IMG/VR virus record: IMGVR_UViG_650716090_000002
Reading direction: 5' to 3' (one strand)
Source: an uncultured virus (IMG/VR IMGVR_UViG_650716090_000002)
Taxonomy: Duplodnaviria > Heunggongvirae > Uroviricota > Caudoviricetes
Length of the DNA: 20,000 bases
Shown in pieces: positions 3,256 through 6,570 of the stretch (positions are counted from its first letter, which is position 1; every line of letters begins with the position of its first letter). The notes under the pieces are model-generated. The model saw nothing but the letters and a program-made list of their open reading frames with translations, did no database searches and was not told where the DNA came from. The translations under genes were made by a program, and so were the position numbers.

Positions 3256-4475
3256 TAGATCCCCCCTCTAAATGTTTTAACTATTGTTTTACTGTGCGCA
3301 TCGCTATATATTGCATATCTCAAAGCATCAAGAACATCATCATATTCTTTTAACGGTTCATCTTTTGTGCTATTAGGTTTCCACTTATACTGATAAATCT
3401 CATCAAAAAAGCGAGGAATTACTTCACGCTTGATAAATAACTTATTTTCTTTAAACTTTTTAGCAACATCTTCTATACCAGCGATTACTGCTTTTTTTGC
3501 ATTTCTTGCCTTTAGCTTTTCTTTTTTAAACCTAGCGACATGCTCTGGCCTTGCTGAGTCAGCCCAAAAGACTACATCGCCATATTTAGCTTTGAACTCT
3601 TTTGCTCTATCAACCCACCAATCGATTTCTTTGTACTGTTCTGATATGCCATCAACAAGATATTGATTCCCTTTGATGTCTTCGCCAATAATCACAATTG
3701 AACCGTAGTGGTCATAACCCCAGTCAACGCCAGCAAAATAACGCTCCATCTCTGGTAAGTTATCCACAATGTGAATATCTTTGTTGAAATCGCTATAAAT
3801 TGCACCTTCAGCAATTGTCCAAAGGCCTAAAATATCTCTATCGTAAAACTTACCGTTGGGAGTTGCTGATTTGATGTTCTCGATATATCTTTTTGAAAGA
3901 AACGTGTTGTCATCTAACTTAAAAGCAAAATCGATGATCATCTTGTCTTTATTATTGATATAGTCACGATTAAGCCAATGGTTGGGATTGTCTGGATTGC
4001 TATCCCATACTATACGCGCATCAGTCCCAGAACACCGTGAAATGATTTCTTTGAACACTACTTCGTTAGCAAGTGACGCCTCGTTTACATAAGCACCAAA
4101 AGAAGTAAAACCACGAGCACGTTTTAGTCCACTGATTGAACCAGTATAGACTTGAACGACTTTAACACCTCTAAAAGTGAAAGAGCCATGTTTATCATAC
4201 TTAGGTTCGAAACCATATTTATTGTATAGCTCTTGCAACACGTTGTTTTGAATACTTGTTGAAGACGTGCCAGCTAATATATACATTGGTTCATCTATGC
4301 CTAATCTATCCGCTATGGATCGCACACGGTCAAGCTCAGTTATAAACGTGTCATTATTAACAACAGTCTTACCTGCTCGCTTAGCACCATGCAACCCGCA
4401 AATAAACCAGTCGTGGTTCCAAATATAACTAAGCACTTCTAATTGTCTAGGTGTGTAGATATCAGATAGGCTCAT
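3255..4475 (-). CDS. terL: Terminase large subunit, PBSX family
   Basis: Walker A GAKRAGKT, Walker B-like AYVNE, DSNP coupling motif, nuclease motifs GVDWG and DDVLDALRY. Confidence 0.95.
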   Translation of the reverse strand: MSLSDIYTPRQLEVLSYIWNHDWFICGLHGAKRAGKTVVNNDTFITELDRVRSIADRLGIDEPMYILAGTSSTSIQNNVLQELYNKYGFEPKYDKHGSFTFRGVKVVQVYTGSISGLKRARGFTSFGAYVNEASLANEVVFKEIISRCSGTDARIVWDSNPDNPNHWLNRDYINNKDKMIIDFAFKLDDNTFLSKRYIENIKSATPNGKFYDRDILGLWTIAEGAIYSDFNKDIHIVDNLPEMERYFAGVDWGYDHYGSIVIIGEDIKGNQYLVDGISEQYKEIDWWVDRAKEFKAKYGDVVFWADSARPEHVARFKKEKLKARNAKKAVIAGIEDVAKKFKENKLFIKREVIPRFFDEIYQYKWKPNSTKDEPLKEYDDVLDALRYAIYSDAHSKTIVKTFRGGI

Positions 4476-4950
4476 CAGAAATAGCCTCCTTGATTTTATT
4501 CATCAAGTTCGAAATCTTATCGTCTTGTCCTTCATCGCCACCAACTTGTAATTTAAGTTTATCGATTTCAAGTTGCATTTTTTCTGCTTGTTTAGATGTT
4601 GGATAACGCTTGAGAATTTCAACTATCGCTTTAATAACTGTGTTATTATCAGGCTTTTTAAATATTCGATTAACTTCTCCAGTTATAGGGTTCATCATCA
4701 GGATTTCTTCTTCACGCTTACCTTTTGCGATGTCGGAAAGTATCGATAAAGCTTCAGTAGCTGTTAAAATATTTTCAGACTGCATCTTCTCGACTTGATT
4801 TTCAATATATGATTTTATCCCTACATTTCCCAACAATTCTTTAGATCGTTTGTTTGCATAATTTTCACTATAACCAGCCTTGATTGCTGATTGGTAAGCA
4901 TTCCCAGAAGCGATATACTCATCTGCGAATTGTCTTTGTCTTTCGTTTAT
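4462..4950 (-). CDS. terS: Terminase small subunit (162 aa if started at ATA 4950)
   Basis: Frame extends 38 codons upstream of the track start and encodes the typical TerS HTH N-terminus (NERQRQFADEYIASGNAYQSAIKAGYS). AAAGGAG RBS at 4966-4960; in-frame TAG at 4956-4954. Confidence 0.85.
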   Translation of the reverse strand: MNERQRQFADEYIASGNAYQSAIKAGYSENYANKRSKELLGNVGIKSYIENQVEKMQSENILTATEALSILSDIAKGKREEEILMMNPITGEVNRIFKKPDNNTVIKAIVEILKRYPTSKQAEKMQLEIDKLKLQVGGDEGQDDKISNLMNKIKEAISDEPI

Positions 4951-4977
4951 TTTCTATCACTCCTTTCAATGCATAAT

Positions 4978-5000
4978 AAAAAGCCACTCAATGAGTGACT
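4978..5000 (-). terminator. Intrinsic terminator closing the structured RNA, upstream of terS
   Basis: AGTCACTCA-T-TGAGTGGCT inverted repeat followed by a T run on the minus strand. Confidence 0.7.
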
Positions 5001-5078
5001 AATTGCATATTAAGTTAGAGCGATATGCTATTCTCTAACCCCTTCGCGCTATGACCTCGTAAGGATTCATACGCTCTA

Positions 5079-5182
5079 TAGGAACAGTCGGATTCGAACC
5101 GACACTATCTCATATAGGAAGCTAGCCTATGAGCACGTATATCTATCCACGTATCAGTATTCCTCACTGATTTATATTCCTA
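5079..5182 (-). ncRNA. tRNA-like module with acceptor stem, T-arm and three internal hairpins (non-canonical cloverleaf)
   Basis: TAGGAATA/TGTTCCTA stem stacked on GTCGG-TTCGAAT-CCGAC; internal hairpins ATCAGT/ACTGAT, ACGTG/TACGT and CTCATAGG/CCTAT(AT)GAG. Confidence 0.65.
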
Positions 5183-5392
5183 ACCACTTCCACCATCTTA
5201 CACAATAGGCTAGTCATCCTATTTATGTGTGACAATGTATGACACTGAAAGCATAGTCAACTCCACTCGGCATTTGCCCGTCAGCGGTTTTACCAATCGT
5301 CATTGGAAGGAATATGACTATCAACCTCAGTAAAAACCAACACGTCAGTACGTAACTGCCTTTCGGAATGTTGGGTAGCTCTTTCGAGCAGA

Positions 5393-5433
5393 CAACCATT
5401 GCACGAATCGAACGTGCGTCGCCAGTATGGTTA
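5393..5433 (-). ncRNA. Mini tRNA-like module (acceptor stem + T-arm, no D or anticodon arm)
   Basis: TAACCAT-ACTGGCGAC-GCACG-TTCGATT-CGTGC-A-ATGGTTG. Confidence 0.65.
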
Positions 5434-5469
5434 CAGCAAATATCTAAAGCGGTCTGTTTTTAAGACCTA

Positions 5470-5517
5470 TTGAGATAGCAGGAATCGAACCTGCGATACT
5501 TCCAATGATTATCTCAA
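5470..5517 (-). ncRNA. Mini tRNA-like module (acceptor stem + T-arm)
   Basis: TTGAGATA-ATCATTGGAAGTATC-GCAGG-TTCGATT-CCTGC-TATCTCAA. Confidence 0.65.
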
Positions 5518-5640
5518 CTGGTTCCCGTTGGGGTACCGTTCCAATTCAAAATAGTAAGTTCGATTTATTTATAAGTAATCGTCTAATCATATGTAGACCA
5601 GTTGTTAATTGTTATCTCTTCTTACTATTTCGATAATATA

Positions 5641-5660
5641 ATAATAACACGTATTATTAT
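5641..5660 (-). promoter_or_regulatory. Probable late promoter: extended -10 (TG-T-TATTAT) within a 20-bp near-palindrome
   Basis: ATAATAATAC/GTGTTATTAT directly after the arpU stop; no good -35, consistent with an activator-dependent promoter; predicted +1 (~5634) coincides with the first helix of the structured RNA. Confidence 0.55.
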
Positions 5661-5667
5661 GCATAAA

Positions 5668-6117
5668 CTATTCATTTACTGTATAAAAACTAGCCTCTTT
5701 CTCCACAATTAGAGAACCCTCTCGATACAGTTCCGCAAAGGCTAATAAAGCTATTTCTAGCTCATCATAATACATGCTCTCAGATATACATAATTCTGCA
5801 TAAATCATCTTATCAGATTTTTTATAATTACTTAGATACTTGTCGTATAAGATTTTTCTTCTTTCCGCTTCAAGTATATTGCTTACCGCTTGTTCAATTG
5901 CTTCAAGTTCGCTCTCTGCATCCACTCTAGTAATTGCCAATCTCTCAACTGGTTTACTAGGTGCGCCGTGAGCTTGTCTTGGCTCAAATGAATAAGTAGC
6001 TGTTATCTTTTGTTTGTCCACATCTTGAGCGATTCGTCTCCAACGTGGATATTCTCTTAGTTTACGCTTTGCATTTGCTTTGGTTTTCTTTTCGTCAATC
6101 TCTGGAAAAAACATCAA
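5668..6117 (-). CDS. arpU: ArpU-family phage late transcriptional regulator
   Basis: FPEIDEKKTKANAKRKLREYPRWRRIA N-terminus, C-terminal HTH ending ALLAFAELY; located before the packaging module. Confidence 0.9.
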   Translation of the reverse strand: MMFFPEIDEKKTKANAKRKLREYPRWRRIAQDVDKQKITATYSFEPRQAHGAPSKPVERLAITRVDAESELEAIEQAVSNILEAERRKILYDKYLSNYKKSDKMIYAELCISESMYYDELEIALLAFAELYREGSLIVEKEASFYTVNE

Positions 6118-6131
6118 TCAGCCCCCATTTA

Positions 6132-6188
6132 TGGTATAATATAGTTACGAACATATACCAAGGCGCTCTTTCGTGGGGCGCTTTTTGT
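6132..6188 (+). ncRNA. Short antisense transcription unit opposite the arpU leader
   Basis: TGGTATAAT at 6132-6140, then terminator GGCGCTCT-TTCG-TGGGGCGC-TTTTT at about 6162-6186. Confidence 0.55.
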
Positions 6189-6353
6189 TGTCTTATCGGA
6201 GTAGCTATACCTCTTTTCTTTTTTATTTTCGGACAGGCACACGATCCGCATTGAAATTCTCACGATGCCTTACTTAATTTCAGATAACCGATAATCTGAT
6301 TTAGATTAGTATTTATGGCGTAAGGAGACCTCCATTTTTTAATTTCGGTTAAT

Positions 6354-6394
6354 ACCAACCGCAGGAATCGAACCTGCGTGATACCTTTGTTGGT
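6354..6394 (-). ncRNA. Fourth mini tRNA-like module, upstream of arpU
   Basis: ACCAAC-AAAGGTATCAC-GCAGG-TTCGATT-CCTGC-G-GTTGGT; 17-nt T-arm identical to the 5470-5517 module. Confidence 0.65.
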
Positions 6395-6570
6395 TATAAT
6401 TCTTTAAGTGGCACAAATTTAAATTGTGGAAACTGTTCTGCTTCTTTACGTGTGATATGACGTGCTTTATTGATATTCATTGTCATGACTAAAAAACCAG
6501 CCCTACTTCTCCACAGAACGTAATAATTTTCATCTATTTTTGACTGCAACACTCCTAATTCTTCGTTCAC
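6394..6570 (-). CDS. Small phage protein, 58 aa, paralog of 7386-7604 (MNEELGVLQSKID...TRKEAEQFPQFKFVPLKEL)
   Basis: Translated by hand; GTGA coupling to the upstream gene; shares both termini with 7386-7604. Confidence 0.8.
   Translation of the reverse strand: MNEELGVLQSKIDENYYVLWRSRAGFLVMTMNINKARHITRKEAEQFPQFKFVPLKEL

Follow-up and report, generated by a model that had tools for sequence, protein, structure and literature searches.

A mosaic non-coding block between arpU and terS of Streptococcus phage Javan384 is probably a late RNA island of leader, tRNA top-half mimics and exchangeable cargo

Phage tRNA clusters are polycistronic non-coding units from which tRNA-processing enzymes separate tRNA-shaped elements as well as small stable RNAs, and the T4 tRNA region with its co-transcribed stable species 1 and 2 RNAs is such a cluster. 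Mimics of the acceptor/T-arm half of tRNA that do not decode are known from mascRNA (the 3' end of MALAT1), plant mitochondrial t-elements, the tRNA-like domain of tmRNA and bacterial Y RNA (YrlA); with mimics of the mascRNA type, recognition by RNase P, RNase Z or the CCA-adding enzyme sets the ends of other RNAs. Here we analyse a non-coding block between the genes arpU and terS in a 20,000-nucleotide (nt) stretch of viral DNA (IMG/VR record IMGVR_UViG_650716090_000002, hereafter the window), which distant BLAST identifies as Streptococcus phage Javan384 (100% match over 711 bases around the block), a prophage of S. parauberis KCTC 11537. Like a T4-type cluster, the block joins tRNA-shaped elements and other RNAs in one non-coding unit; unlike it, Javan384 is without a canonical tRNA call, its mimics are without anticodon arms, and the unit lies at the late-operon head of a small temperate phage. 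To mascRNA, t-elements, tmRNA and YrlA the Javan384 mimics showed no sequence or Rfam relation and, unlike these, they form arrays of three or four, at which processing is proposed.

GOLLD and ROOL, which belong with the largest bacterial RNAs that lack a known function, are found in or near phage tRNA islands according to the available text of a preprint (bioRxiv 2024.12.08.627333), and GOLLD has already been annotated in pneumococcal phage records. Loci of streptococcal phages with GOLLD (RF02032) are like that of Javan384 in their late-regulator gene, TATTAT-type promoter, leader, tRNA or minihelix modules, terminator type and packaging genes, but differ in their cargo, in place of which Javan384 has other, smaller cassettes. 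As to control, ArpU binds repeats directly behind its own gene and turns on late transcription, its sites follow directly on arpU in those phages that were tested, and the ltr-terS spacer contains a terminator (Quiles-Puchalt 2013, PMC3753634, in its accessible part). Javan384 resembles these Ltr (ArpU/RinA/LtrC) late promoters in having repeats and promoter directly behind the regulator gene and a terminator in the ltr-terS spacer; the same part of that study, however, mentions no long structured RNA or tRNA-like elements for the spacer. Finally, a list of small RNAs (sRNAs) from S. pyogenes contains Spy_sRNA544833, an 84-nt RNA from the plus strand (544833-544916) of prophage 370.1 between SPy_0677 and SPy_0678, with a coverage of 33, marked validated and detected by sRNA sequencing and Northern blot (Le Rhun et al. 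2016, PMC4829319, in its accessible part). We return below to this RNA as the homologue of the leader in our block; there it is an unnamed candidate ('5' UTR or 3' UTR', where UTR stands for untranslated region), and the part of the article at hand describes no structure, family, function or downstream modules.

The Javan384 block has a modular anatomy and strand-specific conservation at the RNA level, its leader is homologous to the SF370 sRNA just mentioned, and its frame is that of GOLLD and tRNAs in relatives. We think it probable that the block is a late RNA island of a streptococcal temperate phage, that is, one modular non-coding transcription unit running from a promoter on the arpU side to a terminator before terS and processed at tRNA mimics. 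The unit is made up of a leader of about 88 nt, three tRNA top-half mimics (T1-T3) and interchangeable structured cargo RNAs between the mimics (Table 1). For its expression the following steps may be envisaged: ArpU would turn on the promoter P1 at late times and the island would be transcribed; host RNase P would cut 5' of each mimic and RNase Z past the discriminator, as with the CCA-less tRNAs of the host; the precursor would give rise to leader sRNA, minihelices and cargo RNAs; and the majority of transcripts would end at the terminator, with read-through giving late mRNAs. As for what these products do, tRNA-related decoy or supply, or GOLLD-like RNA assembly, are guesses. We also put forward, tentatively and as more doubtful than the island itself, that the minihelix arrays are a cut-here system by which the RNase P, RNase Z and CCA-adding enzyme of the host cut cargo RNAs out of an ArpU-driven precursor at late times and mature them, that segment B (5392-5165) is a new class of RNA doing the job of GOLLD, and that leader and CCA-tailed minihelices are products in their own right, for example decoys for host factors that bind acceptor ends.

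Table 1. Features of the non-coding block and its neighbours in the window. Paired strands are separated by a slash.
Feature	Position	Strand	Description
Whole block	4977-5649	-	between arpU and terS
arpU	5668..6117	-	ArpU-family late transcriptional activator gene, immediately upstream of unit
terS	4462..4953	-	first late gene; Pfam Terminase_2, E 3.1e-23
Promoter region P1	5633..5667	-	TGTTATTAT at 5649-5641 and second TATTAT at 5638-5633; without -35
Leader RNA (~88 nt)	5546..5633	-	outer 13-bp stem (5633-5621/5558-5546) and inner helices
T1	5470..5516	-	tRNA top-half mimic: 7-bp acceptor UGAGAUA/UAUCUCA, 15-nt linker with GG, T arm GCAGG-UUCGAUU-CCUGC, discriminator A
Hairpin GGUCU-UAAAAAC-AGACC	5451..5467	-	after T1; homology to relatives' hairpins uncertain
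T2 minihelix	5393..5432	-	acceptor AACCAU/AUGGUU (6 bp), linker CUGGCGAC, T arm GCACG-UUCGAUU-CGUGC, discriminator G
Cargo segment B (~228 nt)	5165..5392	-	between T2 and T3; slot of GOLLD or tRNAs in relatives
Hairpin GCUC-GAAA-GAGC and three-way junction	5337..5389	-	outer stem CCAACAU/GUGUUGG, CC-GAAA-GG, CAGU-UACGU-ACUG
Conserved 44-nt block	5288..5331	-	hairpin CCAAU-GACG-AUUGG; 5' side of nested helices
Nested helices	ACUGAG/UUCAGU 5331-5326/5249-5244; AUAGUCA/UGACUAU 5321-5315/5259-5253	-	present in minimum-free-energy fold
Hairpin AAUAGG/CCUAUU	5223-5218/5209-5204	-	within segment B
T3	5079..5164	-	cloverleaf-like mimic: acceptor AGGAAUA/UGUUCCU, D-like arm, over-long anticodon-like stem, T arm GUCGG-UUCGAAU-CCGAC
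3' module	5005..5074	-	hairpin GCGUAUGA/UCAUAGCGC with bulged G, and hairpin GUUAGAG/CUCUAAC
Intrinsic terminator	4971..5000	-	stem AGUCACUC/GAGUGGCU, U5, then invariant AUUAUG closing unit
T0	6352..6395	-	fourth minihelix, upstream of arpU; first base is last base of preceding open reading frame's stop codon

That the unit is modular emerges from the way in which its relatives share it. A distant BLAST gives 104 phage records with partial matches, without exception from Streptococcus; the matches come in blocks (query 1-202, 1-383 and 561-699), and a coverage of at least 80% is reached in Javan384 alone. In alignments with Javan383, Javan407, Str-PAP-1, 315.5, Javan271 and Javan629 the frame is common and the contents are exchanged. 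Scanning viral contigs for the pattern of two invariant leader motifs gave 80 stretches and a scan of genome contigs by ArpU protein only three loci; when the stretches of the pattern scan are combined with the phage loci, a leader with closing stem is present in 46 of 87 loci (37 distinct units), the other 41 being chance pattern matches. From leader to terminator the Javan384 unit measures 657 nt and those of relatives about 0.2-1.1 kb, and at least six unrelated types of 3' module stand behind the same leaders. The modules are exchanged independently, and the relatives speak for a modular unit rather than one co-folding 650-nt RNA, which is the point where we part from the initial annotation of this DNA, made from its letters alone: it had read 4978-5634 as a single ornate RNA of about 650 nt. 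Much else in it holds, namely the sequence and coordinates, the lack of any open reading frame (ORF) of at least 60 amino acids (aa) in that interval, a non-coding structure at RNA level on the minus strand and a location that opens the late operon, with arpU directly ahead of it and terS behind.

How close this frame is to that of GOLLD becomes clear from the relatives. Among 27 sources searched with Rfam at gathering score, one (L009) has GOLLD (254.5 bits, E 2.7e-71), flanked by a T1 minihelix and a tRNA-Ser, and the sequence recurs in 26 Streptococcus phage records, three of which were examined further. S. uberis Javan636 (L119) has the order arpU, leader, tRNA-Ser, GOLLD, tRNA, T2, T3, terminator, terS, and in S. 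suis Javan565 a leader stands ahead of GOLLD and two tRNAs between other genes; pneumococcal phiARI0746 runs from an LtrB-type (DUF1492) regulator gene through a P1-type promoter motif, tRNA-Ser, GOLLD, minihelix and terminator to terS and is without leader. Upstream of GOLLD the leader is present in L009, L118 and L119, as judged by matches to the covariance model R1 (see below). In three of four loci a tRNA begins 8-10 nt past GOLLD and in the fourth a minihelix follows after about 40 nt. More broadly, among 39 related loci nine have tRNAs by ARAGORN (Trp, Ser, Leu, Lys, Ile, Val) and 30 have no such call. Javan384 itself has the phage setting in or beside a tRNA island, in the same frame as GOLLD-bearing loci, but not the RNA: the window gives no Rfam match at gathering score, in 4900-5720 neither GOLLD nor ROOL comes up with E allowed to reach 10, and the GOLLD model (RF02032, gathering score 150) that detects L009 as positive control stays silent, which agrees with the initial annotation's failure to match either family. 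Nor is the GOLLD 5' domain recognisable, BLAST of four streptococcal 5' domains against the Javan384 unit giving only chance matches of 8-20 nt (best E 0.028), whereas the four match one another at 66-74% identity (E 1e-9 to 1e-39); therefore Javan384 represents a GOLLD-less, tRNA-less allele of the island.

Directly after GOLLD in L119 (2595-2672), ARAGORN reports a tRNA with anticodon UUA ('tRNA-Stop'). With T arm and acceptor both of T1 type, it is possibly a version of the phage tRNA-Lys that resembles an ochre suppressor. At E up to 10, the Rfam signals in 4900-5720 were tRNA-like matches below threshold (see below) and chance matches, among them a plus-strand tracrRNA match (20.9 bits against a gathering score of 70, E 0.96) and a pair of plastid UTR models, which do no more than match a T arm in reverse; all were rejected.

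The leader is the part for which RNA-level conservation is most readily followed. Inside its outer stem it has an internal loop AAGA/GAA, a 3-bp helix GAU/AUC and a hairpin GUCUA/UAGAC, and its invariant elements are GAAGAGAUAA and AAUCRAAC. A covariance model (R1) built from 23 leaders scores 86.8 bits in the window (5544-5635), recovers 49 leader copies at E <=2.2e-7 among 91 sources, together with five weak chance matches, and also located the leader in L092, L093, L118 and L119. Across 28 distinct sequences, in alignments that were fitted to R1, pairing holds in 88.9% of cells and both partners change in 15 of the 21 pairs (0/500 shuffles), with a covariation of 0.306 versus 0.178 and slid controls at <=0.162. 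Compensatory changes touch all four helices; the GAU/AUC helix, for instance, becomes CGC/GCG in L119, and in L089 double changes affect two of its three pairs. The fold has a minimum-free-energy (MFE) z of -4.41, and the family has no Rfam entry.

As a transcript, this leader appears to have a precedent. OLEC3161, the Northern probe for Spy_sRNA544833 (PMC4829319), agrees letter for letter with the reverse complement of the leader from the SF370 prophage record (L088), on which R1 scores 92 bits, and in being about 88 nt long, stem-closed, endowed with GAAGAGAUAA and AAUCRAAC and placed directly after the promoter, the Javan384 leader has all the marks of this type. Judged by sequence, the S. 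pyogenes SF370 homologue of the leader is Spy_sRNA544833, and the leader is not new as a transcript. The published size of 84 nt matches the stem-closed leader, being compatible with it as such or with a slightly later start and an end at the predicted RNase P site. As to the new class that the initial annotation had thought possible, the missing GOLLD and ROOL matches are as it had read them, but the 5' part has a homologue already published under this name. In another S. pyogenes data set (differential RNA sequencing of strain S119, PMC6431027) the promoter and leader strings are absent from the readable text of the supplement; its ncRNA table does contain prophage ncRNAs.

Two potential contacts between leader and mimics deserve mention in passing. 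Pairing of leader GAGAUAA with the 3' acceptor strand of T1 was rejected, as L089 and L119 alter the leader motif yet keep a T1-type TATCTCA. Separately, AAUCGAAC, invariant in leaders of the S. parauberis type (here 5571-5564), is complementary without mismatch to the T-loop core GUUCGAUU of T1 (5490-5483), T2 (5413-5406) and T0 (6373-6366); this exact fit is limited to leaders of that type, the S. pyogenes type having AAUCAAAC with one mismatch, and may reflect chance or an alternative pairing.

Behind the leader come the tRNA mimics. T0-T3 share one design, in which an acceptor-like stem leads into a GG-bearing linker and a T stem of 5 bp whose loop reads UUCGAWU, and the returning 3' strand of the acceptor is followed by a discriminator and U; all four can be written as a 7-bp acceptor on a 5-bp T stem with UUCRANY loop and discriminator. 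The D arm and anticodon arm with 7-nt loop of a tRNA are missing from T0, T1 and T2, which have a linker of 8-15 nt only; T3 has arms, though of another shape (see below). The 20-kb window has four copies of their T-loop core GTTCGAWTC (5091, 5405, 5482, 6365), each on the minus strand; 0.24 are expected, and 0/200 shuffles reach four. The T loops which the initial annotation had seen on the minus strand belong to tRNA-like acceptor/T-arm minihelices at the positions of true tRNAs in relatives. In 50 loci (159 kb) the gene strand has 68 distinct T arms and the opposite strand a single one, and 34 of the 68 have a 6-bp acceptor within 16 nt. For 25 short minihelix modules, a set selected for paired stems in which the percentage paired is so by construction and proves nothing, both partners change in 10 of 12 pairs, with covariation at 0.766 versus 0.200. 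All 25 have a U after the discriminator, CCA is not encoded in the mimics, and GG is found in 24 of 24 linkers of at least 6 nt. Such a layout (CCA-less, discriminator followed by U at position 74) agrees with host tRNA genes: those of streptococci are all CCA-less, and RNase Z cuts right after the discriminator (PMC8549757, in its accessible part).

Individually, the mimics differ in how they vary, and the substitutions seen at given positions carry more weight than the selected set above. T1, without D arm or anticodon arm, shows a compensatory acceptor change in S. pyogenes phages; its body spans 1-106 nt elsewhere, with constant acceptor and T arm. The T2 acceptor reads AACCAU, AACCAC, AGGCUU, GGGCUU or AGACCU depending on the phage and is paired every time. 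T3 has a cloverleaf as its MFE fold, with an over-long and bulged anticodon-like stem; its 5' acceptor strand changes between A and G and between U and C only, with a near-invariant 3' strand (15 of 16 variants), and because pairing is kept via G-U it is valid on the gene strand alone. T0 is found at the same position in five relatives, has T stems GCAGG, GAGCG or GCACG that are all paired, folds with an MFE z of -3.07 and, lying upstream of arpU, gives that gene tRNA mimics on both sides. The 5' border of T3 is ambiguous because of a second AGGAAUA copy at 5181-5175; the two copies within 5153-5181 are 17 nt apart, a layout also seen in Javan629. In L089 (3350-3450) and L009 (280-345) we noticed a tRNA-like element whose inner arms are also T-loop hairpins, with three T loops in about 100 nt.

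Could the mimics be functionless remnants of a decaying tRNA gene cluster, produced by deletion and recombination at T arms? T1 would suit such a history, its arm and acceptor being part of an intact tRNA-Lys(UUU) in one relative (L066), holding a 45-nt insert in another (Javan629) and lacking arms in Javan384, and ARAGORN is null in 30 of the 39 loci. So would prophage 370.1, where the array (L088 1331-1372) is reduced to a single hybrid in which the 5' half of a T1 arm is fused to the 3' half of a T3 arm inside the T loop, as expected from recombination at this site. The hybrid T stem has two unpaired positions, and its new acceptor pairing is saved by an A-to-G change. To our minds decay is nonetheless less likely, and very much so: armless forms are kept in phages of S. 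parauberis, S. pyogenes, S. agalactiae and S. uberis with compensatory changes in acceptor and T stem, in no locus seen does T2 or T0 amount to a full tRNA, and neither the regular GG in the linkers nor the strand bias of 68 to 1 fits with it.

Between T2 and T3, the cargo segment B divides into parts of different reach. The three-way junction is supported by seven distinct variants with 98.9% of cells paired and compensatory changes in five of 13 pairs, by covariation of 0.454 versus 0.209 in shuffles (0/500) and by an MFE fold that agrees; together with the leader it is where the covariation that the initial annotation wished to see among relatives has been found. Of the conserved 44-nt block, an 18-nt core is exact in 23 viral contigs and 15 of 40 loci have a BLAST match. 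For the nested helices comparative support, assessed by eye, is weak, and the 3' half of segment B (5287-5165), like the whole nested-helix domain, is common to Javan383 only. In the 3' module, the bulged-G hairpin differs on both sides in five of eight pairs between Javan384 and the SF370 prophage with the bulge retained (by eye), and the GUUAGAG/CUCUAAC loop GCAUAU (5028-5023) can pair with AUAUGC (5010-5005).

Taken helix by helix, the majority of those listed in the initial annotation are present, and some are backed by compensation: the 13-bp leader stem, GTCTA/TAGAC, CCAACA/TGTTGG with CC-GAAA-GG and CAGT/ACTG and, by eye, GCGTATGA/TCATAGCGC and the terminator stem. Others, namely GCTC-GAAA-GAGC, ATAGTCA/TGACTAT, AATAGG/CCTATT and GTTAGAG/CTCTAAC, are invariant in relatives or come without comparative variation by which to assess them. 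Thermodynamics taken alone are only suggestive for the block, the support being modest, with MFE z values of -3.27 (minus strand) and -2.62 (plus strand) for the whole and -0.6 to -4.4 for single modules.

With these data in hand, a scenario where the 650 nt, or at least the T2-T3 segment of about 228 nt, fold and perhaps multimerise as one large ornate RNA can be weighed; it would be a new class in the role of GOLLD or ROOL, its T loops serving as tertiary contacts, and it is the main rival as far as form is concerned. It draws on the presence of GOLLD at the same locus in relatives and on the association of GOLLD and ROOL with phage tRNA islands cited above, on dense helices with two GAAA tetraloops, the covarying junction and the minus-strand z of the whole block, and on extra T-loop hairpins without acceptor stems in L009 and L089. 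Yet modules recombine freely, one and the same leader occurring with at least four 3' modules, and units go down to about 0.2 kb; apart from the stem of the leader itself, no pairing that links distant modules was found, segment B has its 3' half in common with just one other phage, and T arms that come with acceptor stem, discriminator and next U look like those of tRNA genes. We consider one ornate RNA quite unlikely.

The limits of the unit are formed by P1 and the terminator. The extended -10 letters proposed in the initial annotation are present and conserved in relatives, and the motif TATTAT-AG/TA-TATYAT is kept upstream of every leader; P1 is missing from a consensus promoter scan because it has no -35, and its dependence on ArpU is presumed. 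At the other end, the terminator assigned by the initial annotation to 5000-4978 is recovered by our scan as an intrinsic terminator (stem 5000-4982, 8 pairs, tail TTTTATTATG with a TTTTT tract). The upper stem varies with compensation in relatives (by eye), of 38 unit types 34 close, on the 3' side, with a terminator-like hairpin and T run, mostly followed by ATTATG, and in the other four no terminator was found within the sequence available. A terminator with UUUUUAUUAUG closes the unit regardless of whether the next gene is terS or encodes an HNH endonuclease, a methylase or a hypothetical protein.

Within these limits the largest ORFs comprise 58 aa (5399-5223, minus) and 43 aa (5505-5636, plus); neither has a PHROG family match and mosaic breakpoints of relatives cut through both, and they were dismissed as genes. 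A promoter inside the terminator (TAGTCA-17-TATTAT, score 9/12) is unlikely because the ribosome-binding site of relatives begins 1-10 nt after TATTAT. In a search of sequencing runs, shares were <=0.14 in wastewater, gut and aquatic runs, with short contigs over leader, T1/T2 and terminator, data that by their nature cannot show transcription.

A terminator between leader and first late gene raises the question of how the late genes are reached. Processive antitermination by HK022 put, B. subtilis EAR and Q with lambda 6S RNA offers points of comparison. Along such lines, the 88-nt RNA, alone or with ArpU, might act in cis as a late-operon leader and render RNA polymerase resistant to termination, with the tRNA-like cassettes as passengers. 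The leader does start at the promoter, ahead of a conserved terminator; there is no space for a separate promoter, a TAGTCA-17-TATTAT start falling in or after the ribosome-binding site; invariant unpaired nucleotides suggest a binding surface; and a short 84-nt RNA accumulates in the uninduced lysogen, going by the accessible part of the SF370 report. On the other hand, L090, L091 and pneumococcal L117 have a terminator without leader, S. suis Javan565 has its leader before GOLLD in a setting between different genes, with no terminator-like site found after the tRNAs, and the unit has no Rfam match to the processive antitermination RNAs (put, EAR). We regard this model as the main rival for function and, all told, as unlikely.

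Finally, the inverted repeats might act as DNA, be it in a pac or cos site, an ArpU-binding array or a recombination hot spot. A position just upstream of terS and mosaic junctions at T arms and TATTATG are what such an element could show. It is hard to see, though, why pairing in the T3 acceptor and leader should then be maintained by G-U, which is valid on one strand only, why T arms should keep to the gene strand (68 vs 1), or why the unit should be unchanged before terS, HNH endonuclease and methylase genes; moreover, the leader has been observed as RNA in its SF370 homologue, going by the accessible portion of that work. A DNA-level element is the less likely for it, and in our estimate highly improbable.

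The late RNA island that we favour has observations of its own to contend with, in addition to the restrictions already attached to the leader and minihelix alignments. As for its anatomy, L090 and L091 have promoter, one mimic and terminator without leader, the seventh acceptor pair of T2 is an A-A mismatch, in the full-length MFE fold the T3 acceptor has a competitor in hairpin AUCAGU/ACUGAU (5171-5166/5158-5153), and MFE z values of the mimics are weak (-2.0, -0.6, -1.0). ARAGORN finds zero tRNA or tmRNA genes in the window and, at Rfam gathering score, T1-T3 are not tRNA, which is the outcome of the tRNA and tmRNA check that the initial annotation had suggested: T1 stays below threshold with 22.2 bits (RF00005, gathering score 29), as does T3 with 17.9 bits against tRNA-Sec, its only tRNA model match. 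In prophage 370.1 the mimics seem dispensable, since the array has collapsed to one imperfect T arm. As for expression, the leader has been detected as RNA in the SF370 homologue rather than in Javan384 (going by the portion of PMC4829319 at hand), cleavage by RNase P and RNase Z is proposed from the shape of the mimics alone, and the terminator directly ahead of terS means that late genes need read-through or antitermination, which the island model leaves unexplained.

If the mimics are processing signals, this would explain how GOLLD is produced and why it travels with tRNAs, and would show that the cargo slot is interchangeable; if the modules are inert remnants, the finding shrinks to a well-annotated non-coding spacer. 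In either case, the locus gives the observation of tRNA islands with GOLLD or ROOL, known as such, a concrete frame in well-studied streptococcal prophages, and it yields three conserved RNA motifs without Rfam entry (leader, minihelix and three-way-junction cassette), all of which are present in S. pyogenes and S. agalactiae prophages as well as in Javan384, the phage of a fish pathogen. While the leader figures in the literature as a listed sRNA candidate, a search of that literature, from which figure images were outside, found no description of the shared frame, the leader structure or family, the minihelix mimics, the junction cassette or tRNA-shaped modules excising cargo.

Around the block, genes are on the minus strand. 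The arpU product matches NCBIfam TIGR01637 (141.2 bits, cutoff 43.1) and phrog_248 'transcriptional activator' (E 3e-47) and has no Pfam match. terL is next after terS, whose ribosome-binding site begins about 10 nt past the terminator. For terS the frame is opened at 4953 and the Pfam Terminase_2 alignment runs from residue 3, with no ATG, GTG or TTG at the true start; the first common start codon, TTG at 4836 (the GenBank choice), costs about 39 residues. An ATA start (4950-4948) is likely because AAAGGAG (4966-4960) sits 9 nt before it, and the letters at this start are identical in Javan383, Javan407 and L089. Between T0 and arpU, a terminator-like hairpin of 10 pairs (6160-6184) reads well on the plus strand only, opposite the genes. 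In phage 315.5 (L003, 2437-3300) the large terminase subunit is annotated as two coding sequences with a gap of about 190 nt, for which a frameshift, an intron or a sequencing error are all possible.

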